A stretch of DNA of 64,000 nt, taken from the NCBI GenBank assembly GCA_024641325.1, contig JAHEDJ010000001.1, positions 23,594 through 87,593 on the forward strand, read 5' to 3'. This DNA is from a bacterium (GTDB lineage: Bacteria; Actinomycetota; Acidimicrobiia; Spongiisociales; JAHEDJ01). Under the pieces are notes generated by a model, which saw only the letters and a list, made by a program, of their open reading frames with translations, was not told the DNA's origin and searched no databases. Position numbers and translations under genes: made by a program. Below are positions 1-46,482 of the stretch, piece by piece (within the stretch, counting starts at the first letter, position 1; every line of letters starts with the position of its first letter).

Positions 1-645
1 TATCCCCACACGACCGCTACGGAGGTGTCGGATAGCGAGCCTCCCAGTATCACCGTTGGGCTCACGCCGGCGGCAGTCGGTGGGGCGCTCGCATCCGCTC
101 TCACGATCAGCTTCGGGGCGCCACCTGCGATATCGGCCATGAGCAGTGTGTCGGGATCTACTCCCTCTGCGCCTTCGAGAAACAACAGAGTGGTTCGGCC
201 GTCCACCTCTTCGACGTCCAGCAGACGGATCTCTCGCTCCCACTCCGCGAAGAGAACCACCTCGGGTGAAGAAGTGCCTGCGGCGATGTGGAGCACACTA
301 TGCGGTGGGAATTGTTCAGGAGTGGTCTGGTATTGGTAGACGAGGCCGCCGGAGAGATCATCGAACGCCACCGCCACGGGATAGTCGGCATCTCCGGGAA
401 GGTCGCGTGTCTGTCCGCTTTCGAACAGAGTTACTCCTCCGAGGCGCGCAACGATCAAAGAGACATTCCCTTGAACAGCGGGCGTCGTCGATGTGGGCTG
501 TGTGGTTGTGCTCGTTGTCTGTGGGGACACTCGAGTATCGGTCGTGGTGGACCCAACCGTGCTCGTCGTTGCACCCGTTGAACATGCGCTTGCGGCGACG
601 ACCACGGTTATGTAGAACGAGAGCTTCCTCATGACCTGAAATACG

Positions 646-11438: not shown

Positions 11439-12236
11439 TCAACTCCGCGGGAGGATGCGCGCCAGCTGGCGACTCAACGCGACCAGATTCCCTTCTGAGT
11501 CCCAGATTTCGCCGTCTTCCTCGACATGACTCTCGACCAGGAAGCGGGAGATGAACCATGCACGCAGCCAACCTGGTGCCGGTTTGGCACGGAAGTGGAT
11601 TGTGAGTTCGATTGTCGGCACCCAGCCGAACCGATCGAGGTTGAGAACCGTCGGGGGAAAGGCATCTGCGAAAAAGGCAAGTGAAAGCAGGTCGGGCGGG
11701 CGTCCATCTGCGAAACGAATCCATCCTCCGGTCTCGGGACGCCCGACAGGTTCTCCGACTGCTCCTCCGGCAACGCTCGGCTCGAGCCGAGCGTCCACCC
11801 GGTGGTGAAGCTCGAGTGCTGCGAGGCCGCCTTCGTTTCGAACGCACCCGTCCGGAGGCGGCATGGGTGGAGGTGCAGCGGTGACGAAGGTGGGTCCCTC
11901 CGAAGCGTCGAGGTCTCCGTAGGTGGCCAGCATTCTGAGTCTCTCACGACCGTCCTGAAGCAATCGTGCGCAGGCCGTCGACAGGGTCCGGCCCCGCCTC
12001 AGGACTTCGACCTCGATGGTGGCCGGCGCCCCCGAGTTGACACGCCCGAGGTAATGGCTCGTGACCGTCAGCGGATCGGGATGAGGCAACTCACGACCGA
12101 CGGCCGACAGAGCAACGGCAGTGAGATAGCCGCCGTTGGGAATGGTGCCGATGTTCCACCCCGTCGAGATCTCGGCCGACCATGCGCCGTCACCCAGCGG
12201 CGTAACCGCCGTGTCGCGATCGAACTCGAACGGCAC
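11439..12236 (-). CDS. Acyl-CoA thioesterase II-like (double hotdog) family protein
   Basis: The 265-aa product has TesB-like length and composition. The call is tentative. Confidence 0.45.
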   Translation of the reverse strand: MPFEFDRDTAVTPLGDGAWSAEISTGWNIGTIPNGGYLTAVALSAVGRELPHPDPLTVTSHYLGRVNSGAPATIEVEVLRRGRTLSTACARLLQDGRERLRMLATYGDLDASEGPTFVTAAPPPMPPPDGCVRNEGGLAALELHHRVDARLEPSVAGGAVGEPVGRPETGGWIRFADGRPPDLLSLAFFADAFPPTVLNLDRFGWVPTIELTIHFRAKPAPGWLRAWFISRFLVESHVEEDGEIWDSEGNLVALSRQLARILPRS

Positions 12237-12677
12237 CTAGGGGACCACTACCACAGGGCAGTTGGAGTAGTGGACGAGTCGGTCGGCAACGGATCCCATG
12301 ACAAAGCGCTCTATCAGCCCGGCGCCGCGCCGGCCGATGACCAGCAGGTCGGCGTCGACGTCGTCGCAGTAGTGCACGATTGCTCCGGCAGGGTCGCCCA
12401 GTTCCTCGTTCACCTGATAGTCGATACCCTCGAGGTCGACCTCGCGGATGGTGCGGTCCAGAACCTCCTTCTGTGCTTCGACCAACGATTCGGACAATGC
12501 TCTGGCAGGCGGTGGCGCTCCACCGATGCCCCACCAACCCTCAGGCGGGCGCACCACCGTGAGGATGTGCAGCTTGGATCCGTTGCGCCTCGCCATCTCG
12601 GCTGCCAAACGAGTGGCTTCGATGCTGCGGTCCGAACCATCGACCGCGGCCACGATCACATTCGGTGCCCAGACCAT
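12237..12677 (-). CDS. Universal stress protein (UspA family)
   Basis: The 146-aa product runs VIVAAVDGSDRS...LLVIGRRG...GSVADRLVHYSNCPVVVVP, fitting the UspA family. Confidence 0.8.
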   Translation of the reverse strand: MVWAPNVIVAAVDGSDRSIEATRLAAEMARRNGSKLHILTVVRPPEGWWGIGGAPPPARALSESLVEAQKEVLDRTIREVDLEGIDYQVNEELGDPAGAIVHYCDDVDADLLVIGRRGAGLIERFVMGSVADRLVHYSNCPVVVVP

Positions 12678-12788
12678 CTTCGACCTCCTATCTACCTCTA
12701 TCTCACTCTACGTCGTGCCGGCTTCGAACGGCGGGTTTGGTATGCGTCGCACTGTGGGGCAAGATTGATCGTTGAGGAGGTAGAGCCC

Positions 12789-14375
12789 ATGCGGCCCAAA
12801 GTTGTGATTGCCGAGACTATCTCGCAAACCGGGATCGATGCCCTCGGTGAGCACTGTGCTGTGGATGTGGCTGCCGGCGTCGACCGGGCCGACTTGTTGG
12901 ACCGGGTGGCCGACGCCGATGGATTGATCGTTAGGTCGGAGACACAGGTCGATGCCGAATTGATTCAGGCTGCTCCCGGCCTCCGTGTGGTGGGTCGAGC
13001 CGGGGTGGGAGTCGACAACATCGACCTTCGAGCTGCGACAGCCGCCGGAATCCTGGTGGTGAACGCTCCGCAAGCCAACATCATCAGCGCTGCAGAACAC
13101 ACGATGGCTCTGCTGCTCGCGCAAGCTCGCAACGTCGCCTCCGCAGATGCAAGCATGCGGGCGGGTCGCTGGGATCGGAAGAAGTACCAGGGCATCGAAC
13201 TGCACGGTAAGACACTCGGTGTTATCGGTCTCGGCCGGATCGGATCGCTTGTTGCTCAACGGGCGCTGTCGTTCGGGATGCGTCTCATCGCTTTCGATCC
13301 CTATGTCTCGTCTGAACGCGGACGTCGGCTCGGCGTTGAAGTCGCCGACCGTCTCGACGACTTGCTGGCCGAGGCGGATTTCATCACCGTTCATCTTCCC
13401 CGCAACAAGCAGACCCTCGGTCTGATCGGGAACGAGAACATCGCCAAAATGAAGGACGGCGTGCGAATTATCAATGCCTCGCGCGGTGGCATCGTCGACG
13501 AGCAAGCTCTGGTCGAAGCCGTACTGTCCGGCAAGGTGGCAGGCGCAGCCCTGGACGTGTTCGACCGGGAGCCTCTGGCAGACAGCCCTTTGCGAGACGT
13601 CCCTGAGATCGTCCTGACTCCTCATCTGGGCGCATCGACTGTCGAAGCGCAGGACAAAGCAGGGGTCGATGTCGCTAATGCGGTTGGCGCCGCATTGCGC
13701 GGCGAACTGGTCCTCTCTGCCGTCAACGTGGATCTCGGTCGGGACGTGGCGGACGAAACCCGCGAGTTTCTCGGCGTCGCCGAGTACCTGGGGGCCATCT
13801 TCTGTCGCGTCGCCCAGGGTCTTCCCGACCGCCTCGTGGTGAGAACCGAGGGCCGGATCGCCGGTTTCCCGATCAGGCCGTTGCGGTTGTCGGCGCTGAA
13901 AGGAGCTTTCAACGTCATAAGCTCCGCACCCGTCTCGTTCGTCAATGTCGAGGCTCTGGCTGCCCAGAGTGGCCTGGCAGTGGAGGAGGAGGCGTCGACG
14001 GAGTCCGACGAGTTCGTTTCGCTGCTGCGCCTCTCAGGTGTCGTAGGCGGCCGGGTTGTGTCGATCGCAGGGACCATCGGGCGCAAGGGTCCGCACCTGG
14101 TTTCGATTTTCGGACACGACGTGGAGCTGTTGATGTCTCGCCACATGTTGCTGATCCGCAACTCGGACGTGCCGGGCGTGATCGGACGGGTCGGCACCTA
14201 TCTGGGAGACATCCACGTAAACATCGCCAACATGGCAGTTGGCCAATCACCCGAGACGGGTAGCGCCGCGATGATGGGCCTCAGTCTTGACAAGGCACTC
14301 GATGAGCAGCAGATGGCCGGGCTCAGAGCGCTGGAAGGTGTCGAAGAAGCGCAGCAGGTGGAGCTTCCCATCTAG
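12789..14375 (+). CDS. serA: D-3-phosphoglycerate dehydrogenase
   Basis: The start MRPKVVIAETISQTGIDAL is preceded by a GAGGAGG SD sequence. Domains for NAD-binding 2-hydroxyacid dehydrogenase and a C-terminal ACT regulatory region are present. The ORF-track N-terminal extension 11802-12788 is not coding. Confidence 0.85.
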   Translation: MRPKVVIAETISQTGIDALGEHCAVDVAAGVDRADLLDRVADADGLIVRSETQVDAELIQAAPGLRVVGRAGVGVDNIDLRAATAAGILVVNAPQANIISAAEHTMALLLAQARNVASADASMRAGRWDRKKYQGIELHGKTLGVIGLGRIGSLVAQRALSFGMRLIAFDPYVSSERGRRLGVEVADRLDDLLAEADFITVHLPRNKQTLGLIGNENIAKMKDGVRIINASRGGIVDEQALVEAVLSGKVAGAALDVFDREPLADSPLRDVPEIVLTPHLGASTVEAQDKAGVDVANAVGAALRGELVLSAVNVDLGRDVADETREFLGVAEYLGAIFCRVAQGLPDRLVVRTEGRIAGFPIRPLRLSALKGAFNVISSAPVSFVNVEALAAQSGLAVEEEASTESDEFVSLLRLSGVVGGRVVSIAGTIGRKGPHLVSIFGHDVELLMSRHMLLIRNSDVPGVIGRVGTYLGDIHVNIANMAVGQSPETGSAAMMGLSLDKALDEQQMAGLRALEGVEEAQQVELPI

Positions 14376-26114: not shown

Positions 26115-27308
26115 TCATTCGACTATTCCCATCTCCCTACCGGCCGCGGCGAACGCTTCGAGCCCGTGGTCCAGGTCACCGCGCTCATGTGCCGCGGAAA
26201 TCATCACCCGGATCCGGGCCTTGCCCATCGGTACGGTCGGATAGGCAATTGCCTGTGCGAACACTTGGTGGATGTCAAAGAGGCGCTGGGACAACTCTCG
26301 AGCAACCTTCTCATCACCCAGCATCACCGGTGTGATCGGCGTCTGGGTGAACCCCGTATCGAATCCCAGGCTCTGCATTCCCTCACGAAAGCGCCGGGCA
26401 TTCATCCAGAGACGATCGACGAGTTCCGTCGATTCGGAGAGAATGTCCACCGAGGCGATACAGGCGGCAACGTCGGGCGGAGTCGCCGCAGATGAGAAGA
26501 GAAACGGGCGGGCGCGCTGGCGGAGCCAGTCGACGACCGGCTGTGGTCCGGCGACATAGCCGCCGACAACGCCGAACGCCTTCGACATTGTTCCAACCTC
26601 GACTTCGACTCGCCCACTGAGTCCAAAGTGATCGACAATACCTCTACCTCCGCGGCCGAGAACGCCTTCGCCGTGGGCGTCGTCGACCATCACCATCGCC
26701 GCATAGCGATCGGCGGTATCCACGATTGCATCGAGAGGGGCTACGTCGCCGTCCATCGAGAATACGCCGTCGGTGATGACGAGGATTCTCCTCGCTCCCT
26801 CCGCCCTGGCCGTCGCGAGTTGGGCGTCGAGATCGCTCATATCCGCGTGTTTGTATATTTTCCTGGCCGCCCTGGCTAGTCGCACCCCATCGATTATCGA
26901 AGCATGGTTCAACTCGTCGGTCACGATTACATCGCCGGCGTCTACGAGCGCCGGTATGGCGCCCGCATTGGCCACGAACCCGGCCTGGAAGGAGATGGCG
27001 GCTTCAACGCCTTTGAAGGCGGCGAGCCGTCGTTCGAGTTCGTCGTGGATGGTCATGGTGCCCGCGATGGTGCGAACAGCGCCCGGACCGATTCCGTACC
27101 GGTCGAGAGCCGCCTTGGCGGCCGCGATCAGTCTTTCATCGTCGGCCAGGCCGAGGTAGTTGTTTGAGCAGAAGTTGAGGACCCTGCGGCCGTCGACGTT
27201 GATCCAAGCTCCCTGCGGCCCGTCGATGTGACGGATCTGATTCCTGAGCCCCGCCTTTTCCAGGCCCGTCAGTTGCTCACGCAGGTATTCGACCTTGTCC
27301 ACCGTCAC
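26115..27308 (-). CDS. kbl: Glycine C-acetyltransferase (2-amino-3-ketobutyrate CoA ligase)
   Basis: The product is a class II aminotransferase/AONS-family enzyme (NFCSNNYLGLADDE...). A GTG start at 27308 overlaps the tdh stop (GTGA). The ORF-track start at 27362 is probably too long. Confidence 0.8.
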   Translation of the reverse strand: MTVDKVEYLREQLTGLEKAGLRNQIRHIDGPQGAWINVDGRRVLNFCSNNYLGLADDERLIAAAKAALDRYGIGPGAVRTIAGTMTIHDELERRLAAFKGVEAAISFQAGFVANAGAIPALVDAGDVIVTDELNHASIIDGVRLARAARKIYKHADMSDLDAQLATARAEGARRILVITDGVFSMDGDVAPLDAIVDTADRYAAMVMVDDAHGEGVLGRGGRGIVDHFGLSGRVEVEVGTMSKAFGVVGGYVAGPQPVVDWLRQRARPFLFSSAATPPDVAACIASVDILSESTELVDRLWMNARRFREGMQSLGFDTGFTQTPITPVMLGDEKVARELSQRLFDIHQVFAQAIAYPTVPMGKARIRVMISAAHERGDLDHGLEAFAAAGREMGIVE

Positions 27309-28363
27309 TCCAGGGGTCCGTCGGCGTCTTGGGGGTCCGGGAACATGATGACCTTGCCGCACTCGCCGGACGCCATAGTCTCGAATGCTCGATCGAAGTC
27401 ATCGAGGGCATACCGGTGAGTGACAATGGGTGATAGATCGACCGCGCCCGATCGCAGCAATCCCCTCATTTGATACCAATCGATCCAGAGTCGGCGTCCC
27501 ACTATGCCGTAGACGCTGGCGCCTTTGAAGATGACGTGGTCGTCCAGGTTGAACTCGAGTGGGGCAGAGGTCAGGCCGAGCAGCGCAGCCTCACCGCCCG
27601 ATTTGAGAGAAGTGAATCCCTCGTTGATTGCCGAAGGCGCTCCGGACATTTCGAGCAGGACATCGATGCCTTCACCCTCGCTGACGTCCATGATCGTGTC
27701 TACCACATCGCCCGTGGCCGGGTTGACCGTGATGTCGGCACCCATCTGTTTCGCCATTGCAAGCCGGTAGTCGCTCACGTCGCTGGCGATGATGAGCCGG
27801 GCTCCGAGTGCACGTGCAACGGCAACCGCCATGACACCCACTGGTCCACAACCGGTGACGAGCACTTTCCTGCCCGATACCAGTGGAACCGAGGCGGTGT
27901 GCACCGCGTTGCCGAAGTTCTCCTGAAGGGAGGCGATCGAGTAGGGCATGTCGGGCGGATCCGGCCAGGCGTTCGCTGCGGGGACCGCAACGAACTCCGC
28001 ATAGACGCCGTCCCTGCCGACGCCGAGGATCTTCGTGTTCTCACAGAGATGGCCCTTACCTGTGCGGCAGAACGCGCACCGATTGCACACGACGTGCGAC
28101 TCAACTGAAACAAGTTGCCCGATCTCCGGGCCATCTGCTTTTGGGCCTTTGTCGACGACGACTCCGCACATTTCGTGTCCGACGACGATGGGGGGAGTGA
28201 CGTGCGTTTGAGCCCAAGGGTCCCAGTTGCGAATGTGCAGGTCGGTGCCACAAATCGACGTGGCTTTCACCTGAAGAAGAACTTCATCCGGTCCGAGTTC
28301 CGGCATCGGCACATCAATCATTTCGAGACCGGGTTCGGATGAAGTTTTGACGACCGCTCGCAT
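27305..28363 (-). CDS. tdh: L-threonine 3-dehydrogenase
   Basis: The product is a Zn-ADH-family enzyme: MRAVVKTSSEPGLEMIDVPMPELGPDEVLLQVKATSICGTDLHI. I chose the internal Met that aligns with the E. coli Tdh start. Confidence 0.85.
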   Translation of the reverse strand: MRAVVKTSSEPGLEMIDVPMPELGPDEVLLQVKATSICGTDLHIRNWDPWAQTHVTPPIVVGHEMCGVVVDKGPKADGPEIGQLVSVESHVVCNRCAFCRTGKGHLCENTKILGVGRDGVYAEFVAVPAANAWPDPPDMPYSIASLQENFGNAVHTASVPLVSGRKVLVTGCGPVGVMAVAVARALGARLIIASDVSDYRLAMAKQMGADITVNPATGDVVDTIMDVSEGEGIDVLLEMSGAPSAINEGFTSLKSGGEAALLGLTSAPLEFNLDDHVIFKGASVYGIVGRRLWIDWYQMRGLLRSGAVDLSPIVTHRYALDDFDRAFETMASGECGKVIMFPDPQDADGPLE

Positions 28364-28395
28364 CAATCTCAGGCTAACTGACCGGCAGAGGTCCG

Positions 28396-29004
28396 ATGAC
28401 ATCGCAACCCCGAGGCTGTGGAAGAATGACGGGAATGAGTGTTGAAACAGTATCCAAATTCTTCGCCCTGCTCACGCTGGCCGCCATGGCCGGTGTGAGC
28501 GGCGTGCTGGTGGTCATGTTGACGGCGCGGTGGTCGCCATCCATCGCCCGCTTCAGAGATTCTGCCATCGAGTTGGTGTCACCTGCTGCTCTGTGGCTCG
28601 GGTCGTTCATCGCAGCGGTTTCTATGGCGGGGAGCCTCTACTACTCAGAAGTGGCCGACTTCGCCCCGTGCGATCTGTGCTGGTACCAGCGAATCGCCAT
28701 GTATCCGCTGGCGATCATCCTGGCAATCGCCGCGTATCGCAAGGACGTTGGGATACGACGATACACATACCCTGTGGCGGTGATCGGTGCTGTGATCGCC
28801 ACATATCAGTACGTGCTGCAGCTCAGACCCAGCCTCGAGTCGGGTTTCTGCGGGGTTGATGCATCGTGCACTGAGCGTTACATCTGGCAGTTCGGGTTCA
28901 TATCGTTCCCGTTCATGTCTCTGGTCGGGTTCGCGATGATATTCACACTGCTCTACATCGCAGCCAGGGCGGAGCAGGAGCAAGCAGAAGGACCTAGGTC
29001 ATAG
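28396..29004 (+). CDS. Disulfide bond formation protein B (DsbB/BdbC family)
   Basis: The product carries the BdbC/DsbB motif LYYSEVADFAPCDLCWYQRIAMYP and a second Cys pair (FCGVDASC). There is an extra N-terminal hydrophobic segment, and the start may instead be at 28426 or 28435. Confidence 0.65.
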   Translation: MTSQPRGCGRMTGMSVETVSKFFALLTLAAMAGVSGVLVVMLTARWSPSIARFRDSAIELVSPAALWLGSFIAAVSMAGSLYYSEVADFAPCDLCWYQRIAMYPLAIILAIAAYRKDVGIRRYTYPVAVIGAVIATYQYVLQLRPSLESGFCGVDASCTERYIWQFGFISFPFMSLVGFAMIFTLLYIAARAEQEQAEGPRS

Positions 29005-29028
29005 GTTCCGGGGCGTGGTCCCGGAACC
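29004..29028. terminator. Hairpin GGTTCCGGG-GCGTGGT-CCCGGAACC between convergent genes
   Basis: A perfect 9-bp GC-rich stem is followed by the A/T-rich CAAAATTC. It lies between the dsbB-like stop and the stop of Sec-TlpA gene 1. Confidence 0.5.
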
Positions 29029-29051
29029 CAAAATTCAGAACCCAGGACGAT

Positions 29052-29720
29052 CTACCCCTCGCCGCGCATGAAGCCGATAGCGTTTTCGAGGTCTGCTCCG
29101 GTCAACGGTCCAACATGGCGGGTGACGACGGTGCCGGATCCATCCACGATTACGGAATACGGGAAGTAGACGAGACCGTAGCTCTTCATGGCGGTTCCGT
29201 TCTCATCGTCGACGAGCACCGGGATCGGCCATTCGGCCAGCCACTCGCTCGGCGGATAGCCTTTTTCGGTGGGCCTATTACTGCCTGAAACGCTGACGAT
29301 ATCGATATCGGTCGGCAGGTCGTTGGTGGACCAGTAGCTCAGCAAGTCCGAGACCTCGGACTGGCAGTGCGGTCACCAGTGGGTCAGGAACATGATGATC
29401 TTCGGTCGACCGTCGTTCTTGATTTCGACCGGCGATCCGTCAAAAGACTGACCGCTCAACTCCGGCATCGGCAAGCCGAGTGCAGGGTCTGCACCCTGCT
29501 CCGGCATGGGCACTAGGACACTGCCGATCACGGTCACGGGGCGCGTTTCACTGATGGATGCCGCAGCGGCGGCACCGTCTCCGGGTCCGCCGTCGGATGC
29601 AGTCCCCGGATCATCGGAGCCTGTCAGCAGCACGGCCGCGACCCCGGCGAGCAGCACGAAGGCGGCAGCAACTCCGAAGATGAGCAACGATCGAGTTTTG
29701 GAGGTGTTCTGGTCTGTCAT
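29052..29720 (-). CDS. TlpA/ResA-like membrane-anchored thiol-disulfide oxidoreductase, putative selenoprotein (in-frame TGA at about 29373-29375 read as Sec; active site W-U-P-H-C)
   Basis: Two track ORFs, 29373..29720 and 29052..29345, lie in the same frame and are joined by a single TGA. The joined product reads ...GRPKIIMFLTHW-U-PHCQSEVSDL... and aligns with the TlpA/ResA FWASWCGPC active site, with U at the first Cys. An N-terminal TM helix is present. A SECIS-like hairpin starts 6 nt after the TGA. Confidence 0.7.
29340..29368 (-). promoter_or_regulatory. Putative bacterial SECIS element (stem CUGCCAGUCCGA, loop GGUC, stem UCGGACUUGC)
   Basis: The GGUC apical loop sits at positions 21-24 counted from the U of UGA, versus 22-25 in the E. 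coli fdhF SECIS. The same 26 nt occur in the paralog on the other strand. Confidence 0.6.
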
Positions 29721-29776
29721 GTTCCCCTAATGTGTGCGGACAGATTGTACGTGTGATTGCGGGAAACGAGGAACTG

Positions 29777-30397
29777 ATGGCGAAGTACAAGTCGCGCAAG
29801 CGGAAGCAGAGCATGCTGCCGCTGGCCCTGGGTGTCGTTGGAGCGTTTGCCGTGCTGGCGGTTGTTGCCACCATGCTCAGCACGGACGAGGCCTCGGTTT
29901 ACGGAGATATCACGGTGCGGGGGGAAGGGTTGCCTGCGTTCGTTGCCGGCGCTCCCGATGCTGCGATAGGCCTCGCACTTCCCACCATCGAGGGTGCCGA
30001 TTTCGACGGCAACCCCGTCACGATCTCCGACGACGGTAGACCCAAGCTGATTCTCAACCTGGCGCACTGGTGACCTGTCTGCCAGTCCGAGGTCTCGGAC
30101 TTGCAGCGCTACTTCGATGAAAACGGTTTGCCTTCGGCAGTTGATCTCTACTCGACCTCGATTCTCGTCGAGCCTTCCAGAGTCAACTACCCGCCCGGCG
30201 CCTGGCTGGAGCGTGAAGGGTGGACGCCACCGGTGATCGTGGATGATCGGACCGACTCGGTTCATTCAGCGCTGGGAATGCCAAATGTCCCGGCGTGGGT
30301 TGTCGTGGGTAGCGATAACGTGGTCATTCAGCGAGTAGCCAGCGGCATCACCACGGAGCAGTTCGAGGAACTCGTGGCACTGGCGGCCGGCGCCTGA
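29777..30397 (+). CDS. TlpA/ResA-like membrane-anchored thiol-disulfide oxidoreductase, putative selenoprotein (in-frame TGA at 30071-30073 read as Sec; active site W-U-P-V-C)
   Basis: Track ORFs 29732..30073 and 30101..30397 are in the same frame. The start MAKYKSRK is preceded by an AGGAA SD sequence, and an N-terminal TM helix is present. The product reads ...GRPKLILNLAHW-U-PVCQSEVSDL..., with the TGA at the first Cys of CxxC and a SECIS-like hairpin downstream. Confidence 0.7.
30079..30106 (+). promoter_or_regulatory. Putative bacterial SECIS element (12-bp stem with one mismatch, GGUC tetraloop)
   Basis: The sequence is UGA-CCUGU-CUGCCAGUCCGA-GGUC-UCGGACUUGCAG. The loop G and U positions and the spacing from the UGA are like E. 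coli fdhF. Confidence 0.6.
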
Positions 30398-30474
30398 TCT
30401 CACTTGCAGGATTCAACATGCGGTGCGGTATGATGCCGTCCGCCCGTCTGCCAGGCGCGCCCATTCGGGGGTGG

Positions 30475-30546
30475 TGTAATTGGCAACACAGCAGGTTCTG
30501 GTCCTGTCATTGAGGGTTCGAGTCCTTCCCCCCGAGCGAGCCCGGT
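30475..30546 (+). tRNA. tRNA-Gln (anticodon CTG)
   Basis: I folded the cloverleaf by hand, finding a U1-A72 acceptor TCGGGGG/CCCCCGA like bacterial tRNA-Gln. The D-arm is GTGT-AATTGGCA-ACAC, the anticodon loop is TTCTGGT, and the T-loop is TTCGAGT. Confidence 0.7.
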
Positions 30547-30569
30547 AACGGGCACAAACGGCCCCGTCG

Positions 30570-30643
30570 TCTAGCGGCCTAGGACGCCGGCCTCTCAAGC
30601 CGGTAACGCCAGTTCGAATCTGGTCGGGGCTGCCGCACCGACA
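30570..30643 (+). tRNA. tRNA-Glu (anticodon CTC)
   Basis: The sequence is near-identical to the tRNA-Glu at 23597, with anticodon loop CTCTCAA and T-arm GCCAG-TTCGAAT-CTGGT. Confidence 0.8.
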
Positions 30644-30648
30644 CCCCT

Positions 30649-30675
30649 GCTCAGCGGGGGTGTCGCCGCGTCTGT
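30649..30675. terminator. Hairpin CGACACCCC-TGCTCAGC-GGGGTGTCG downstream of the tRNA pair
   Basis: The inverted repeat is visible directly. No U-tract follows, so it may be a processing or termination structure. Confidence 0.35.
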
Positions 30676-30791
30676 AAGTCGACCGGCGGTGAAACCGGCC
30701 ATGTCGCAGAAGCTGTGATCACGGCACGGAACTGAGTTCGCAGTCTGGGTTACGTCCGGGGAAGGATGAGCCGACTCTCAGCCGTGGATTG

Positions 30792-32789: not shown

Positions 32790-33548
32790 CTACGGGCTCA
32801 ACACTTTGAACGACTCGGCGAGGTCGAGTCCGGCCGGTTGTGCTTGTCGGCGAGCCCAGGCCTCCATGCGAGACCGAAATGCTTCGCGTTCCGCCCGGCC
32901 CTTGTGTGCATCCCCCATCGTGGTTGTTCCCTGTGACGAGTGAGCAAGCAGTGCCTCGAGCTTTATGTCGAATGTGTCGGTGATGTCGACCCAATGGTCC
33001 GCTTCGTCCGCGCCCCATAGATATATCCAATCAGGTCGATGTTTCTCGACGCCGCCGACGAGTTGATCGGTAAAGAACAAGTGATCGCGCGCCGCTACGA
33101 TCCCGTCGATGGCGGCGAGTCCGGTGACGCGATGATCCGGGTGAAGCTGATATCTCTGCCAGGGATCGTGTGTCAGCACAACGTCGGGCCGGATTCTCCT
33201 GATCCACAGGCACATCTCTCTGCGCAGTGCCATCGAGTATTCGAGTTCGCCGTCGGTGTGGCCGAGCATTATCGAGGTGGTGGCGCCTATTGCGGCAGCC
33301 GCGGTGTGCTGCTCGTTGCGGCGCTGATCGACCAGGGTCTGGTGGTCGACTTTCGGATTCCAGGAACCTTTCGAGCCGTCGGTGACAATCAGCATGGTGA
33401 TCTCGCACCCGGCCGCGGCCCAGCCGGCCAGCGTTCCTCCCGCTCCGAACTCCGCGTCGTCGGGGTGGGCGCCGATGGTCAGGGCTCGTGCCGGGATGCC
33501 GTCAGGTCGATCTTCAGCACGGGCATCGGGATGGATACCGCTTTTCAT
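32790..33548 (-). CDS. PIG-L/LmbE family deacetylase
   Basis: The motif AHPDDAEFGAGGTLA and a later HPDH are typical of the MshB/Mca/BshB LmbE fold. Confidence 0.7.
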   Translation of the reverse strand: MKSGIHPDARAEDRPDGIPARALTIGAHPDDAEFGAGGTLAGWAAAGCEITMLIVTDGSKGSWNPKVDHQTLVDQRRNEQHTAAAAIGATTSIMLGHTDGELEYSMALRREMCLWIRRIRPDVVLTHDPWQRYQLHPDHRVTGLAAIDGIVAARDHLFFTDQLVGGVEKHRPDWIYLWGADEADHWVDITDTFDIKLEALLAHSSQGTTTMGDAHKGRAEREAFRSRMEAWARRQAQPAGLDLAESFKVLSP

Positions 33549-33557
33549 GCCGGGAGC

Positions 33558-34151
33558 CTACCGGCCGATAGCCTGATCGAGCCAGGTCCCGCGCGGGTGG
33601 CGAGCTGCCGCCGCGTAGTCGGAGGGAGCATCTACGTCCAGAAGAAAGCCGGTCCTCGCAATGACGCGGACGGGGTGCCGGCGGACGCCGGCCAGATGAC
33701 GATGAAAGGAACCAGGGCCGTAGGCAAACGAAGGCACAGGCGCCTTGCCGGCGAAGACGCTGGTGCCTCCGTCGCGCGATGGAGCCAGCAGAAACCCATC
33801 CCGGGGTATCCGATCCCAGGCGGCTCGCACGTCCTCGGGTGTGAGCAGCGGGAGATCGGCGTGGAGGATCATCCATCTTCCATTTGCGGCCAGCTCGATG
33901 ACCCGACTCGCAGCCGCATTGAGGCCCTCGAGTCGCTCGAGAATGATCCCGGCACCCCGATCATCAGCCCACTCGGCCACAGCCTCGTCGCTCGTGACGA
34001 CCCACACGGCACCGACGGTCCGAGCGACCACCTCCAGTGTGTGAGCCGCGACGGCCCGTCCGAGCTTCTCTCGCTGCTCCGCATCAAACCCCACAGCCAT
34101 CCTTGCCTTGGCGAGGTCGAACTGTTTGAGGGGAACTGCCGCAATGTCCAT
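33558..34151 (-). CDS. cofC: 2-phospho-L-lactate guanylyltransferase-like (CofC/FbiD family, F420 biosynthesis)
   Basis: The product is a MobA-like NTP transferase of about 198 aa. The N-terminus MDIAAVPLKQFDLAKARM matches the CofC consensus (V-P-x-K-x-x-x-x-AK-R/S-R-L). Confidence 0.55.
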   Translation of the reverse strand: MDIAAVPLKQFDLAKARMAVGFDAEQREKLGRAVAAHTLEVVARTVGAVWVVTSDEAVAEWADDRGAGIILERLEGLNAAASRVIELAANGRWMILHADLPLLTPEDVRAAWDRIPRDGFLLAPSRDGGTSVFAGKAPVPSFAYGPGSFHRHLAGVRRHPVRVIARTGFLLDVDAPSDYAAAARHPRGTWLDQAIGR

Positions 34152-34257
34152 GACCCAGAGGCTAGAGCCATTATGGGCCATCGCCGTTCATGCAGCTCGG
34201 GACTATTCGTGCCGCCACCGGTGTTGGCTAGATCCGAACCAAACGAGAGGATTGTCG

Positions 34258-34542
34258 ATGGCCAGCGCTTTGTGGAACGGCGTAGTACTGGCGGAGAGCG
34301 ATGACACGGTCATTGTGGAAGGCAACCATTACTTCCCTCCCGGGTCGATCAAAATGGAGTACTTCCGGCAATCGGATAGCCACACTTCATGCCCGTGGAA
34401 GGGTACGGCGAGCTACTACGACCTGGTTGTGGACGGTCGGGTGAACCCTGGAGCTGCATGGTTCTACCCGGAGCCGAAGCCTGCAGCTCGCCAGATCCGC
34501 GACTACGTGGCCTTCTGGAGGGGCGTTTCCGTTCAAGCATGA
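34258..34542 (+). CDS. DUF427 domain protein
   Basis: The 94-aa product starts after a GAGAGGA SD sequence. The sequence NHYFPPGSI...CPWKGTASYYD fits the DUF427 pattern. Confidence 0.5.
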   Translation: MASALWNGVVLAESDDTVIVEGNHYFPPGSIKMEYFRQSDSHTSCPWKGTASYYDLVVDGRVNPGAAWFYPEPKPAARQIRDYVAFWRGVSVQA

Positions 34543-41887: not shown

Positions 41888-43150
41888 TCAACCCTCAGAA
41901 CCGACGGCCGGACGGAGGTTCACTACCTCGGCCGGCCGGGTGATTCTCGTCACTTCTCGATCGAGGTCGGTGACGACCGCCAGAAGCTCTGTCCGTAACT
42001 GCTCGAGTGTCCCGCGCACGTTCTCCACCGATGTCGTTATGTCGGTTAGTGAGCGTCGGCTGCCCGACATCAGCTGGGCCAGCTGGCGTATGCGCTGGAG
42101 CCTGTCTTCGAAGAGTCCGTGGTCGAGCTCTCCACGAGTCTGACGCTCGGCAGCCATCGCAGAAATCGCCCAACGAATTGCGACGGACGTCATGGCACCG
42201 TCTCCTTGATCCACCACCAGGAGACGGTGCCCGTAAACGCCGAACTGACCGACCTCCCTCGGGAAAGCTTCGCGGGCGGAAACACAAACGGAGAAATCGG
42301 CAGACCGGTTGACGATTGCTCTGTCCAATTCGTCGAGGATGCCGTCTTTTCCCGCCAGGTTGATTCGCGCGGTGTTCTTGGCTTCGACGACGATCCGGGC
42401 CCCGTCGGCAAGTGTGACGACGAAGTCGCCGACCATTGCGTCGGCGCTGAACTCGCCGGGCGTTCTACCCGTCCGCTCGACTACGCAACCGCCGAGTCCG
42501 GCGACGGCTTCTCGAAGCCAATTCTCGACAGATTCTTCGAAGTCGAATCCCTTCTGAGTGCCGGCTTCGGCCTCTTCTGCCCGCCCTCGCTGATGCATGA
42601 CTGCGTCGCGCAACTCCGTGAGCCGATCCTCGATCGACCGGCCGAGTTGGGCGAAAGCCGATGTGTCGACGGTCGGGTCCAGCGCCTCCTCGAGACGTCT
42701 CTGGAGTTCACCTGCCGGGCCTACCAGCGACGCGAGTTGGGACAAAAAGACGGCCGTGTTGCTGTCGGCATCGGCCGGATCCATGCGCGCCAGGAAGTCG
42801 TCTCGCCAGGCCGTGAATTCGTTGAGTGTCCTCGCAACCGTCGAACTCCGATGCTCGGGAGAGAGTTGTGCTTCAAATGCGTGGCCGGCAGTCGTGAGGA
42901 CCGTCTCGACCTCCCGGCGGGCCTCGGCGGTGGCTTCGAGGATGGAACGTCTAACTCGGTCATCGATCTCCGAGAGGTCGATGCCGAGACCCATCGACAA
43001 GAGTCCTCTCACCCCGACGGCTATGGCCCTCGTGAGAACCTCAGCTCGCAACTCCTCCGGCTGAGTCGTCAGCAACTGTGCCAATCCGGGGTCGGTCACC
43101 TCGAGATCCTCGATCGTGACTGTGTCTCCGTCCACTCGTATCAGCGCCAT
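41888..43150 (-). CDS. Hypothetical coiled-coil protein with C-terminal PD-(D/E)XK-like motif (RmuC-like architecture?)
   Basis: I chose the internal Met MALIRVDG. A long helical N-terminal region is present, and the C-terminus GDFVVTLADGARIVVEAKNT resembles a D...E-x-K nuclease motif. Assignment is uncertain. Confidence 0.35.
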   Translation of the reverse strand: MALIRVDGDTVTIEDLEVTDPGLAQLLTTQPEELRAEVLTRAIAVGVRGLLSMGLGIDLSEIDDRVRRSILEATAEARREVETVLTTAGHAFEAQLSPEHRSSTVARTLNEFTAWRDDFLARMDPADADSNTAVFLSQLASLVGPAGELQRRLEEALDPTVDTSAFAQLGRSIEDRLTELRDAVMHQRGRAEEAEAGTQKGFDFEESVENWLREAVAGLGGCVVERTGRTPGEFSADAMVGDFVVTLADGARIVVEAKNTARINLAGKDGILDELDRAIVNRSADFSVCVSAREAFPREVGQFGVYGHRLLVVDQGDGAMTSVAIRWAISAMAAERQTRGELDHGLFEDRLQRIRQLAQLMSGSRRSLTDITTSVENVRGTLEQLRTELLAVVTDLDREVTRITRPAEVVNLRPAVGSEG

Positions 43151-43211
43151 GTGTTCAATGTATCCGGCACGAGTGACAGAAACGCGCATTTGGGTGTGGG
43201 ACAATCTCCGG

Positions 43212-44906
43212 ATGCCCGCACCGATCGCCCCAGTCGCCGATCTTCGTGCCGCGCTACATGCGCTGGCGGAGTTGATCGACGATGTGACGTTCAAGCTCCC
43301 CGGCAACGCTCGCACGGCTCGAAACACTCTGCGGCGAGAGACCGCCTGGGGTATCAACGAGTACCTTCTACCCAGACTCGGTGACCTCGATGCCCCTCTC
43401 GTCGCGGTATTGATTGGCTCAACCGGAAGCGGCAAGTCCACCATTCTCAACAGCCTTGCTCAACTCCCTATCAGCGATGCCGGCGCGCTCCGCCCCACCA
43501 CGACCATGCCCGTCGTCTGGGCTCACGGACTCCACGTCGATCGCTACCGGGAGGAGTTTCTCTCCGGATATGGATCCGAGCAGCAGCCTATCCGAGTGGT
43601 AGACGGCAGAGATTCGCTGCTCCGCGGGCTCACGGTCATCGACGCACCGGATTTCGACTCGGTTGTGGAGCACCACCGCCGGATGGCGGACGATTTGTTG
43701 GCGGTAGGTGATGTCATCTTGTTCGTGACCTCGGCCCAGCGCTACGCCGACGCCGTCCCGTGGGAGTTTCTGGAGAAGGCTCACTCGCGTTCGGTTCCGG
43801 TTCTGTTCATCGCCAATCGAATTCCACCCCGATCCGACGATCTGATCGCCGACTACCGGCGCCTCCTGGAGGAGAGAGGGTTCCCCCTGGAGCAGCGCTT
43901 TTTCGAGATTACCGAACAGCCTGTCGAGCGGACGATCGGTGCTCTGCCTGAGAAGGCGGTGGTCGATATCCTTGCTCGTCTGCAGGAGATGGCGAGCGAA
44001 TCGGGCCGCGCCGCGGTACTCGAGGCCTCGATACGCGGCGCCGTTGGCGAGCTTGCCGTTCGAACGGCCGCTCTCGAACAGGCCGTCTCCCAAGAGGTCG
44101 CTGAGGCCGGAGCCTTGCGTCGTGTTGCGTCTGCTGCATATGAACGTCAGGTCGGAGAGGTCTCCGGATCCCTGGATTCCGGCGAGCTGATCCGAGCCGA
44201 GGTGATCGAGAGATGGCAGGAGTTCCTGGGTACCGGCGAGTTGACGAAGGCAATCACCGACGGCGTTTCTCGCCTCTCCTCGTGGGCCAGGCGGGTGTTC
44301 GGCGGCAACCAGTCCGTCACGCGGGTCCGGGCAGATACCGGCATGGAGTTGAGCGAGGTCCTAATCCGCCGCGCCGACCTGGCCGCCACGGCTGCGGCAT
44401 CAGCGTGGGAACTGGACCCGGCCGGCGCTGCGTTGCTCGGTGGCCGGCCACTCTGGAGACACGCCGACACGACTGCGGCGCGCGCAGCCGAGGCCGTGGA
44501 AGACTGGCTGACAGACCTCTCCGAGCTGATATCCGAAGCAGGCGCATCCAAGAAGCGGACTGCGCAGGTGGCGTCCTACGGCGTAAACAGCGTTGCAGTG
44601 GCGTTGATTCTCGGTGTGTTCCTTCAGACCGGAGGCCTAACGGGTGCCGAGGTCGGGGTGGCAGCCGGAGCGGCTGCCGCACAACAGAAACTGCTCGAGC
44701 ACCTGTTCGGCTCGGCAGCTGCTCGCTCGCTGATCGAAACAGCCAGGCTCCGACTGAGCCACACGGTCGGCGTGGTGCTCACAGAAGATGGAGCGAGGTT
44801 CGGCAAGCTCCTCGACGACCATACCGATGAGTTGCCAGAGGCAGGCTCGTTGATTTCCGCGTGCGACCGGGTGCTCGACTTGGTGGAGGCATGGGATGGC
44901 GTATGA
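43212..44906 (+). CDS. Dynamin-like GTPase family protein (bacterial DLP, IniA/DynA-like)
   Basis: The product has a P-loop GSTGSGKST, a G2 Thr (RPTTT), a G3 motif VIDAPDFDS, and a long helical stalk. The start MPAPIAPV was chosen over the track start at 43116. Confidence 0.65.
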   Translation: MPAPIAPVADLRAALHALAELIDDVTFKLPGNARTARNTLRRETAWGINEYLLPRLGDLDAPLVAVLIGSTGSGKSTILNSLAQLPISDAGALRPTTTMPVVWAHGLHVDRYREEFLSGYGSEQQPIRVVDGRDSLLRGLTVIDAPDFDSVVEHHRRMADDLLAVGDVILFVTSAQRYADAVPWEFLEKAHSRSVPVLFIANRIPPRSDDLIADYRRLLEERGFPLEQRFFEITEQPVERTIGALPEKAVVDILARLQEMASESGRAAVLEASIRGAVGELAVRTAALEQAVSQEVAEAGALRRVASAAYERQVGEVSGSLDSGELIRAEVIERWQEFLGTGELTKAITDGVSRLSSWARRVFGGNQSVTRVRADTGMELSEVLIRRADLAATAAASAWELDPAGAALLGGRPLWRHADTTAARAAEAVEDWLTDLSELISEAGASKKRTAQVASYGVNSVAVALILGVFLQTGGLTGAEVGVAAGAAAAQQKLLEHLFGSAAARSLIETARLRLSHTVGVVLTEDGARFGKLLDDHTDELPEAGSLISACDRVLDLVEAWDGV

Positions 44907-46482
44907 CATAGCCGCCGCCCTCGATCTCCTCGATCTCGCCATAGGCAGAGCAACGGAGATCGTCGAGCCTGAGGTTCTGATGCCGCACGCGCAGACTGCA
45001 AAGGACGTTCGCGCCAGGATCGGCTTCCTCGGTCGGTCGGTTGTCGTCGCCCTGGTGGGCGGCACCGGATCGGGCAAATCCAGCCTCCTGAATGCACTGG
45101 CCGGAGAGGAGGTCGCGGCCACGGGCGTAGTGCGCCCGACCACCGAGCGGCCCCTCGCCTGGATCCCGGCCAACCCGGAACCTGGCCTGACCCGGCTGCT
45201 GGATGATCTCTCCATCGGTGACAGGGTCGGGCACGACTCCTTCGGAGAGATCGCCATTCTCGACCTGCCCGATACCGATAGCGTGATCCGGTCACATCGG
45301 GAGGTGGTTGAGTACCTTCTCCCCAGGGTGGACGCGGTGATCTGGGTCCTCGATCCCGAGAAATACAACGACCGTCTGCTGCACCGCGATCTGCTGCAAC
45401 CACTCAGTCGCTATTCGTCGCAGTTCATCTTTGTCCTCAACCAGATCGACCGATTGAGCCCGGCGGAGGAAAACCAGGTGGTGGATGATCTCCGGCGAAC
45501 ACTCGAGGAGGACGGAATCGATAACGCTCAACTCCTTACTATTGCCGCCGCTCCCGACAGCGGGCCACGAATTGGGATCGCCCGCTTGAGCCGTGACCTG
45601 CACGGCAAGCTCGAGGCAAAGCAAGTGGTCATGAAGAAGATCATCGCCGACCTCCGTGAAGCACGAGACGGTATCGCCCGTACGACTGGAGTCGGCGTGG
45701 GGGCGGGAACATCGTACGACGATCGCTGGGACGCGACCGCGAACCATGTCACGGGGATACTGGTTGACCCCATGGTCGGAGACGATGCGGCGGCCCTGGA
45801 AGCGGGCCGGCAGGCGGCCCTCAGAAGAGGTGGAGGACCTATTGCCGCTCTCACCGGATGGTACCGATCCACCCGGTTCGCCCGGGTGGCCGGCCGCACT
45901 CACCCGGCGGACAAGGTCCGGCTGGATGCCTCTGCGCAGCTCACGCGGGCGGCTTCGTCCGTTACCGAATTGGTGGCCGATCTGTCTTTTGAGATTGGCG
46001 GATCATTCGGGCGGGTTCTCCGTGGGGAAGTGGTGCCCGAGGGGATTGAGCAGGAGATCGGTCGAGTCGTGGAGGCGGCGTCGCGAGAGGTCGGGGAGTT
46101 CCGAGTCGGCGCGCCGAGTTGGTGGTGGCGCTTGATCGGGGTGGCTCAGTGGTTTCTGGCGGGCGCGATCCTGGCAGGGATCATCTGGCTGTGGGCCGAT
46201 CCGGATTCGCTCGAGCCGGGGGGCGACGTACGTCCTCTGTTGCTGGCCGCAGGTTCACTGGTGCTGGGATTGCTCCTTCGTGCGGCGATTGTCGTCGCCG
46301 GTCAGCGCGCCGGGCGTCGTGCCCTTCTTCGGCATGTTGACGCCCTCCGAGCCGCCGTCCGGTCGAGGCTCGATCGCGGGGTGGGAAGCTCCATCAGGAC
46401 GCGAATGAGGACCCGGGCGGAAGTCGCCGGAGCGTTGACGGAACTAGGGATTGTCACTGCGGCATTGGAAGAGAGTCTGTAA
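44896..46482 (+). CDS. Dynamin-like GTPase family protein with C-terminal TM hairpin (DynB/IniC-like partner)
   Basis: The product has a P-loop GGTGSGKSS, a G3 motif ILDLPDTDS and a G4 motif LNQID. A C-terminal hydrophobic hairpin (WWWRLIGVAQWFLAGAILAGIIWLW) is present. The gene overlaps the upstream DLP by 11 nt. Confidence 0.65.
   Translation: MAYDIAAALDLLDLAIGRATEIVEPEVLMPHAQTAKDVRARIGFLGRSVVVALVGGTGSGKSSLLNALAGEEVAATGVVRPTTERPLAWIPANPEPGLTRLLDDLSIGDRVGHDSFGEIAILDLPDTDSVIRSHREVVEYLLPRVDAVIWVLDPEKYNDRLLHRDLLQPLSRYSSQFIFVLNQIDRLSPAEENQVVDDLRRTLEEDGIDNAQLLTIAAAPDSGPRIGIARLSRDLHGKLEAKQVVMKKIIADLREARDGIARTTGVGVGAGTSYDDRWDATANHVTGILVDPMVGDDAAALEAGRQAALRRGGGPIAALTGWYRSTRFARVAGRTHPADKVRLDASAQLTRAASSVTELVADLSFEIGGSFGRVLRGEVVPEGIEQEIGRVVEAASREVGEFRVGAPSWWWRLIGVAQWFLAGAILAGIIWLWADPDSLEPGGDVRPLLLAAGSLVLGLLLRAAIVVAGQRAGRRALLRHVDALRAAVRSRLDRGVGSSIRTRMRTRAEVAGALTELGIVTAALEESL

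Follow-up and report, generated by a model that had tools for sequence, protein, structure and literature searches.

Selenoproteins in which selenocysteine (Sec) takes the place of the first Cys of a CxxC motif (UxxC selenoproteins) are a known kind in prokaryotes. TlpA-like and Redoxin members have been catalogued since 2005, and the kind is known from ocean surveys (PMC13188914, PMC1088965, PMC2398784). The catalogue, most recently laid out in a 2026 review of prokaryotic selenoproteomes (PMC13188914), includes thiol-disulfide-isomerase-like proteins (cd02966), a "Thiol:disulfide interchange protein" (PF13098) and a "Redoxin family protein" (PF08534) (PMC13188914 Table 1; PMC1088965). Here, we analyze a 64,000-nucleotide (nt) stretch of DNA from a member of the Acidimicrobiia (Actinomycetota; GenBank assembly GCA_024641325.1, contig JAHEDJ010000001.1, positions 23,594 to 87,593), hereafter called the window, in which two neighboring genes, A and B, encode TlpA/ResA-fold oxidoreductases that are each interrupted by one in-frame UGA at the active site. 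Because of the comparative evidence presented below, we are highly confident that A and B are genuine selenoprotein genes in which this UGA would be decoded as Sec. An earlier note on this DNA, made from the sequence alone, had called such a pair possibly undescribed. This holds for the subfamily but not for the kind, as UxxC TlpA/Redoxin selenoproteins are already catalogued: A and B represent an unannotated subfamily of an already known selenoprotein kind. Our literature search, in which the example sequences of the catalogue were not compared, found no description of the HW-U-PHC subfamily of Acidimicrobiia, of its DsbB linkage or of the divergent A/B pair.

The two genes and their signals are located in the window as follows:

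29052..29720, minus strand: gene A, 222 codons, encoding a predicted membrane-anchored TlpA/ResA-fold oxidoreductase with the predicted active site W-U-P-H-C; stop codon TAG at 29052-29054.
29777..30397, plus strand: gene B, 206 codons, paralogue of A with the predicted active site W-U-P-V-C; stop codon TGA at 30395-30397.
29373..29375, minus strand: in-frame UGA of gene A (codon 116), predicted Sec codon from translation and alignment with Cys homologues.
30071..30073, plus strand: in-frame UGA of gene B (codon 99), predicted Sec codon from translation and alignment with Cys homologues.
29721..29776, no strand assigned: divergent intergenic region between the starts of A and B, 56 nt, with the Shine-Dalgarno-like sequences AGGGGA and GAGGA, one per strand.
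29342..29365, minus strand: hairpin of gene A resembling a selenocysteine insertion sequence (SECIS), GCC-AGUCCGA-GGUC-UCGGACU-UGC, from folding and pair counts.
30081..30104, plus strand: SECIS-like hairpin of gene B, with the same sequence as the hairpin of gene A, from folding and pair counts.

Both genes consist of two open reading frames (ORFs) in a common frame. On the minus strand, the sole break between ORFs 29373..29720 and 29052..29345 is the TGA at 29373-29375 (complement), and on the plus strand the sole break between the ORF ending at 30073 and ORF 30101..30397 is the TGA at 30071-30073; coordinates and translations agree with the layout described in the earlier note. The joined product of gene A reads ...GRPKIIMFLTHW*PHCQSEVSDL... 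(active-site stretch FLTHW*PHCQSEVSDL, with the asterisk marking the UGA), and that of gene B reads ...GRPKLILNLAHW*PVCQSEVSDL... (active-site stretch NLAHW*PVCQSEVSDL). Translation of gene B likely starts at ATG 29777 (MAKYK..., with GAGGA 8 nt upstream) rather than at GTG 29732. The genes lie head to head on either side of the 56-nt spacer, and they share 35-39% identity at the protein level and ~55-60% at the DNA level. No sigma-70-type promoter consensus and no terminator were found when positions 28900-30700 were scanned. The products carry a single hydrophobic N-terminal segment (residues 12-33 in A and 13-34 in B, as read from the sequence) and no lipobox, in line with the N-terminal anchors noted before, and on this ground both are predicted to be tethered to the membrane, the catalytic domain being extracytoplasmic.

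The window has a G+C content of 61.8% and contains housekeeping genes (gatA/gatB, gltX, serA, pyk, tdh and kbl). Among the ordinary stop codons of its genes, TGA is common; gene B, too, ends in it and so uses TGA twice, as the predicted Sec codon and as terminator. A global reassignment of TGA is ruled out, since many genes of the window, gene B included, end in this codon. When the window was scanned for TGA-split ORFs with coding-like composition, a hairpin was present only at A and B.

Searching a database with gene A yielded 241 relatives. The best 120 of the 241 were inspected and are all full-length proteins (~204-259 residues) with at most 53% identity to gene A; those with a named source are TlpA-family or CcmG/DsbE proteins of Acidimicrobiia or Actinomycetota. 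A full-length relative closer than 53% identity was not found among the 241. This is expected, because the TGA of close relatives causes gene callers to cut them, as confirmed by exact look-ups: GenBank lists the halves of relatives separately as "hypothetical proteins" of 97-115 residues from Acidimicrobiia metagenome-assembled genomes (MAGs; HSR44667.1, MDF1598068.1/MDF1598069.1), and one C-terminal half is present on 56 contigs.

When the joined proteins A and B were aligned with 17 full-length homologues, both TGAs coincided with the first Cys of HW-C-PHC; its second Cys was invariant. Cys thus occupies the TGA column, as anticipated in the earlier note, which had located the stops at the nucleophilic Cys. 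A UGA aligned in this way with a redox-active Cys is one of the features by which bacterial selenoproteins are recognized. CPHC is nearly invariant among the Cys homologues, and the counterpart in gene A is UPHC. The proposed likeness to the WCxPC motif of ResA and CcmG had to be abandoned, as the motif is W-U-P-H-C, a CPxC pattern like the CPHC of DsbA; the FWASWCGPC that had been quoted for ResA is the thioredoxin motif, ResA having CEPC. With Cys placed at the stop, the products matched Pfam Redoxin (A, 36.5 bits; B, 30.7 bits; gathering cut-off 26.6) and Pfam AhpC-TSA (A, 30.7 bits; B, 27.5 bits; cut-off 26).

The same codon was recovered from related genomes and metagenomes. A scan of a genome collection identified a syntenic locus (L005; further loci are numbered in the same way) in the Acidimicrobiia-like MAG Ww199 (JAHEDK010000009.1), which shows the gene order of the window (tdh, dsbB, A, B, tRNA-Gln, tRNA-Glu), 71% amino-acid identity to gene A, and TGA at the same codon in both genes. 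Scanning metagenomes added 71 further loci. Across the loci, the active-site codon is TGA in 27 distinct sequences and TGC or TGT in ~50. The TGA forms comprise the A clade and the B clade, in all orthologues of which TGA is conserved, as well as the single-copy clades C and D, with one lipoprotein form among them. They span ~40-86% identity, and none contains an additional stop or a frameshift. The presence of the same TGA in both genes of L005, at 71% identity, and in 27 distinct sequences puts the pattern in both genes far beyond chance.

The head-to-head arrangement of A and B was also found in L005, L008-L010, L012-L014 and L016. Directly downstream of gene B, the window carries tRNA-Gln(CUG) at 30465-30537 and tRNA-Glu(CUC) at 30560-30634. 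This tRNA pair is present in every orthologous locus that extends far enough (L005, L008-L010, L013, L014, L016 and L026) and is a stable synteny anchor of the A/B clade.

An origin of the TGA by sequencing or assembly artefact is refuted by independent assemblies, as the identical codon occurs in NCBI MAGs, in metagenomes of the Joint Genome Institute (JGI) and in Logan assemblies of at least five SRA runs; we consider the probability of such an artefact to be negligible.

Conservation at the protein level extends to both sides of the UGA. In those TGA forms that are complete on their contig, the downstream frame remains open for 105-108 codons up to the normal C-terminus of the family. The ratio of nonsynonymous to synonymous substitutions (dN/dS) downstream of the TGA is 0.07-0.27, comparable to that of the upstream part, in pairwise Nei-Gojobori comparisons that excluded the hairpin codons and in which downstream synonymous sites were near saturation. 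These values bear on the possibility that A and B are decayed or genuinely split, with the TGA acting as a nonsense codon and only ~115-residue N-terminal fragments, or two small proteins, being produced. Such a scenario would agree with the way GenBank and gene callers list the halves, and with the lack of Sec machinery in the window and related loci (see below), but it is already contradicted by the comparative data: the same lone stop is kept at the catalytic codon of 27 sequences with no other lesion, the downstream part has a low dN/dS, TGA and hairpin co-occur without exception, and a C-terminal fragment alone would be devoid of both the first active-site residue and the membrane anchor. 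We therefore regard decay or splitting as very improbable. The argument of the earlier note that decay explains the stops poorly is borne out, and the sister genomes, to which it had referred the codon for checking, keep TGA in the orthologues and never with extra lesions.

In a neighbor-joining tree of the catalytic domains, all Sec forms group in one clade nested inside the Cys forms. This monophyly within the Cys family tree indicates one conversion from Cys to Sec, which would have been followed by diversification and then by the A/B duplication in the lineage of the window. The Cys family, out of which the Sec forms would have come, is widespread in Acidimicrobiia.

The hairpin found downstream of the UGA links the codon to a possible decoding signal. 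It begins 10 nt past the UGA and is composed of a perfect 7-bp stem and a GGUC loop that starts at +21; in gene A it codes for C-Q-S-E-V-S-D-L. Below the 7-bp stem, many sequences have a C/U mismatch followed by a lower stem of 2 bp that varies. The hairpin region comprises 26 consecutive nt that are identical between A and B, paralogues with otherwise ~55-60% identical DNA. All TGA forms carry the hairpin (27/27), and the ~50 TGC/TGT forms are without such a hairpin; the downstream hairpin pointed out in the earlier note is thus kept in every TGA form and in none of the Cys forms. Every TGA form encodes C-[Q/R]-S-E-V-S-[D/G] via CNGTCCGAGGTCTCGGNC, in the nucleotides C-N-G-TCCGAGGTCTCGG-N-C, and every Cys form encodes C-Q-x-E-V-P.

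Pairing and covariation were evaluated on 26 distinct related sequences. The 13-nt hairpin core TCCGAGGTCTCGG is invariant in all of them, including four synonymous third positions, in a setting in which the proportion of synonymous differences (pS) flanking the hairpin is 0.3-0.75. The 7-bp stem is paired in 181 of 182 cells. Compensatory double changes were observed at two stem pairs (A-U to G-C in four sequences, G-C to A-U in one), G-U intermediates are also present at stem positions, and shifting the 3' partners by 1-3 columns lowered pairing from 92% to 17-43%. Taken alone, the covariation evidence is modest, as the sequences are related and most pairs are invariant. Stronger support comes from the invariance of synonymous sites combined with the exclusive association with TGA. 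Folding of the gene A hairpin in a 57-nt context gave z = -2.9. On ~1 Mb of strand, a pattern search for TGA triplets with a GGUC-loop stem of 6 bp or more downstream at SECIS distance retrieved the sites of the family and two unrelated hits. The latter are located at L014 ~320-360 (+) and L053 ~3745-3785 (+).

Bacterial SECIS elements are stem-loops that follow the UGA; their loop lies ~16-37 nt from it and has a G among its first positions. The 7-bp stem with its GGUC loop at +21 shows these features in 27/27 TGA forms. The closest described element is the SECIS of E. coli fdhF, which is likewise a coding-region hairpin immediately 3' of the UGA. The apical loop, A-GGUC-U, is identical in both and begins, counted from the U of UGA, at 22 nt in fdhF and at 21 nt here. 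Unlike in fdhF, the upper stem here is a perfect 7-bp helix without a bulged U. Owing to this match, Sec insertion at A and B would be SelB-dependent. We propose that the first, nucleophilic residue of CxxC is Sec (UPHC in A, UPVC in B), and that the UGA would be read by Sec-tRNA(Sec) delivered by SelB, which in turn would be recruited by the coding-region hairpin (7-bp stem, GGUC loop) starting 10 nt past the UGA. The hairpin would overlap the start of helix alpha-1 and thereby impose the peptide C-Q/R-S-E-V-S-D/G on the protein.

Some results weigh against this proposal. Shuffling of the hairpin alone (66-nt pieces) gave modest z-scores (-0.8 to -1.2), an effect of the high GC content of the sequence. 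In Rfam, run in both gathering and permissive mode, the region and the window matched no SECIS model; Rfam coverage of bacterial SECIS elements is poor, and for this reason we did not count the result against Sec. Further, searches of the 64-kb window and of 504 kb of related loci turned up neither tRNA-Sec nor selA, selB or selD. ARAGORN detected no tRNA-Sec in the window and 21 loci, Rfam reported no tRNA-Sec family in the window, the E. coli proteins SelA, SelB and SelD had no tblastn hits in the window and all loci (504 kb), and Pfam revealed no sel genes among ~30 ORFs of the window. Absence from the window and the loci says nothing on the rest of the genome. Sec machinery has been reported for another order of Acidimicrobiia, the Actinomarinales: each of the 84 complete Actinomarina genomes has selC, selA, selD and a divergent selB, with ~5 predicted selenoproteins per genome (bioRxiv 10.64898/2026.04.03.716425).

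The lack of Sec machinery in the window and related loci would also suit a UGA that is recoded to a residue other than Sec, either by hairpin-aided read-through with Trp or Cys or by a Cys-tRNA(Sec) in a non-Sec lineage, and the gene call by JGI did render the TGA of one family member as Trp (HWWQHC). This "Trp", however, is an artefact of a gene call with genetic code 4, as the codon on the contig is TGA. Loop sequence and spacing of the hairpin are those of a SelB-binding SECIS, and a UGA at the nucleophilic Cys of UxxC is a known selenoprotein signature (PMC13188914 Table 1). Moreover, a single step from TGA to TGC or TGT would make the hairpin needless, and the sister Cys forms are indeed without it. 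Recoding to another residue is therefore improbable in our view, and Sec decoding remains the reading we prefer; every sequence-level test proposed in the earlier note that could be run came out in its favor. Taken together, the best joint explanation, which we hold with almost the same confidence as Sec decoding itself, is that A and B would be full-length, membrane-tethered extracytoplasmic UxxC oxidoreductases, decoded via SelB and most likely acting as soluble-domain partners of DsbB.

The family member rendered with Trp is protein P0001, encoded at L082:958-1590 (JGI Ga0589154_00406485), for which the database gives HWWQHC and the contig TGA. It is another Sec-form member and, with its lipobox LAAAC, a lipoprotein version. 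Evidently, the JGI gene call was made with a code in which TGA stands for Trp, and metagenome protein sets probably contain other such artefactual Trp variants of selenoproteins.

Analysis of the predicted tertiary structure was performed on the Cys homologue P0004, which stands in for A and B. Its AlphaFold model has a predicted local distance difference test (pLDDT) score >90 over the domain, with a helix beginning at the CPHC motif, and its best PDB matches are ResA (template-modeling score ~0.8), M. tuberculosis DsbF/DsbE, pneumococcal Etrx and CcmG; sequence searches of the PDB agree with the structure matches. The alignment shows an invariant Pro at the cis-Pro position (P187). Judging from this model and from the Pfam Redoxin and AhpC-TSA scores above the cut-offs, the predicted fold is a TlpA/ResA-like thioredoxin fold, as the earlier note had suggested. 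The NCBIfam equivalogs (TlpA, ResA, DsbE and StoA) score far below their cut-offs (TlpA, 26 versus 230; ResA, 23 versus 170). A match to Pfam DsbA (PF01323) was not found in the products of A and B, and the ResA-like catalytic domain of ~145 residues is too short for the helical insertion domain of DsbA. Gene B has the dipeptide PV in the window and PF or QF elsewhere (UPVC, UPFC, UQFC), and its cis-Pro loop has diverged (VPAW versus FPY/FPF). Given these differences in dipeptide and cis-Pro loop, A and B have probably diverged in substrate or redox role.

Next to gene A, the window encodes a candidate redox partner:

28426..29004, plus strand: gene for a DsbB/BdbC-family membrane protein with the motif CDLCWYQR, convergent with gene A; Pfam DsbB 52.9 bits, PRK03113 (NCBIfam, "disulfide oxidoreductase") 122 bits.

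Of the Cys and Sec loci with sufficient extent, nearly all have a dsbB-like gene next to the TlpA-like gene, and the DsbB family was confirmed by Pfam PF02600 in the window and five other loci (motif CxxCW[YF]QR). The usual place of this gene is directly upstream in the same orientation, which holds for almost all loci of Cys forms and for Sec clades C and D. A conserved two-gene unit, in which a CPHC TlpA-fold gene comes after a dsbB-like gene, was observed (L006, L028 and L032-L078) across very diverse Acidimicrobiia-like contigs, AT-rich marine ones included; in L038, two tandem Cys paralogues follow dsbB. From its gene content, the unit looks like a disulfide-bond system typical of the lineage, in which the TlpA-fold protein would replace DsbA. 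No description of such a unit was found in the literature.

On the basis of gene neighborhood and of the DsbA-type CPHC motif, which is ancestral in the family, we lean towards the view that A and B are DsbB-oxidised partners in extracytoplasmic disulfide exchange, in which a selenenylsulfide would replace the disulfide. Their redox partner is probably the DsbB homologue at 28426..29004, and the direction in which redox equivalents would flow is one that we infer. Of the TlpA/ResA label assigned in the earlier note, the fold stands and the ResA-like active-site motif does not; the CPHC-type dipeptide and the conserved DsbB neighbor favor a DsbA-like role over that of a reductant in cytochrome c maturation. 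It weighs against the DsbB-partner role that gene neighborhood and the CPHC motif are its only basis, that dsbB is convergent with gene A in the A/B clade and hence not co-transcribed, and that the structurally similar ResA, CcmG, StoA and Etrx are reductants.

The last point leads to a different assignment, in which A and B would be true selenoproteins that act as reductants like ResA, CcmG, TlpA, StoA and Etrx, for example in cytochrome c maturation or as electron donor to an extracytoplasmic Msr or peroxidase. The best matches in both sequence and structure (StoA, ResA, CcmG, Etrx) are proteins of this type, Sec is usually tied to efficient reductive catalysis, and the convergent dsbB shares no operon with gene A here. 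Yet the consensus dipeptide is the DsbA-type CPHC and not CxPC, and the PDB entry 3c71, in which CPHC was grafted into ResA, terms it a "DsbA-like active site motif". In addition, almost all Cys loci, as well as Sec clades C and D, have dsbB directly upstream in the same orientation, and neither CcdA nor ResB nor ResC was found among the ORFs of the window that were scanned. The structural matches also include mycobacterial DsbE and DsbF, TlpA-fold proteins that have been reported as oxidants. Weighing both sides, we find a reductant role possible but somewhat doubtful, and we continue to favor oxidation by DsbB.

Even more specifically, A and B could be the first selenoproteins in DsbB-type oxidative folding, with the selenenylsulfide of U-P-H-C serving as disulfide donor and being re-oxidised by the DsbB/BdbC homologue, a suggestion that we make tentatively. 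Our literature search returned nothing relevant on a selenoprotein linked to DsbB. If this suggestion is true, the divergent copies A and B might split labor, e.g., as oxidase versus isomerase/reductase, and aerobic or estuarine Acidimicrobiia would use selenium for extracytoplasmic oxidative protein folding as well.

The analysis corrects an annotation error, as the genes are deposited as two "hypothetical protein" fragments or, after a switch of the genetic code, as a "Trp" variant, and this error propagates through public databases. It adds a well-supported selenoprotein subfamily to the Acidimicrobiia, a class with little documented selenium use within the Actinomycetota. Further, the family is a very clean natural case in which a SECIS hairpin dictates the sequence of the protein: within helix alpha-1, the peptide S-E-V-S-D is found only in the Sec clade. 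It also raises the testable idea of a DsbB-coupled, DsbA-like redox step run with selenocysteine. The general picture is unchanged, because thioredoxin-fold UxxC proteins are the commonest class of predicted bacterial selenoproteins.

Several other features were recorded in the window. The threonine-dehydrogenase-like gene (27305-28402, minus) and the 2-amino-3-ketobutyrate-CoA-ligase-like gene (class I/II aminotransferase; 26115-27362, minus) overlap by ~58 nt as listed from their first start codons; this tdh-like/kbl-like pair is divergent from dsbB, an arrangement that is also present in L005. ARAGORN called a tRNA-Phe(GAA) at 26980-27054 (+), inside and antisense to the kbl-like aminotransferase gene. 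The call was not reported by the Rfam tRNA model and is probably a false positive. At 43116-44906 and 44896-46482 (+) lie two adjacent, slightly overlapping dynamin-family GTPase genes, like a bacterial dynamin-like protein pair. The 857-codon ORF at 11802-14375 (+) has SerA (phosphoglycerate dehydrogenase) domains only at residues ~334-830; its N-terminal extension of ~330 residues, for which Pfam gave no match, may result from a start called too far upstream or from a fusion. Finally, the 421-codon ORF at 33039-34304 (+) has a coding-like G+C content at third codon positions and no Pfam match. It is antisense to PIG-L-like and CofC-like genes (32790-33548 and 33558-34187, minus) and is probably a shadow ORF of these high-GC minus-strand genes.

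Compared with known systems, A and B are closest to the catalogued UxxC selenoproteins. The two share the fold superfamily, the Pfam/CDD families, Sec in place of the first Cys of CxxC and an in-frame coding-region SECIS; the catalogued proteins, too, were found via pairs of Cys and Sec homologues and are functionally uncharacterised. That annotation resources recognize ResA/TlpA-like selenoproteins is evident from the NCBIfam model NF041054 (ResA-like WAxxUGC selenoprotein), which differs in its motif (WAxxUGC versus HWUPHC/HWUPVC) and, with 354 model positions, in its longer architecture. Membership of the window proteins in NF041054 was rejected, the score being 15.8 bits against a 300-bit cut-off and the motif being different. 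With B. subtilis ResA and StoA, rhizobial TlpA and E. coli CcmG (DsbE), the family has in common the fold, the N-terminal anchor, a CxxC at the start of helix alpha-1, the cis-Pro loop and the Pfam Redoxin/AhpC-TSA assignment. Those proteins, however, have Cys in CxPC-type motifs (CEPC in ResA) and are reductants fed by CcdA/DsbD, whereas the A/B family has U/C-P-H-C and a DsbB neighbor. The couples DsbA-DsbB of E. coli and BdbD-BdbC of B. subtilis resemble the system described here in the CPHC dipeptide, in their extracytoplasmic location and in the link to DsbB/BdbC, which in our case is one of gene adjacency. Unlike DsbA and BdbD, A and B are predicted to be TlpA-fold proteins, do not match Pfam DsbA and would carry Sec as the first residue of the active-site pair.

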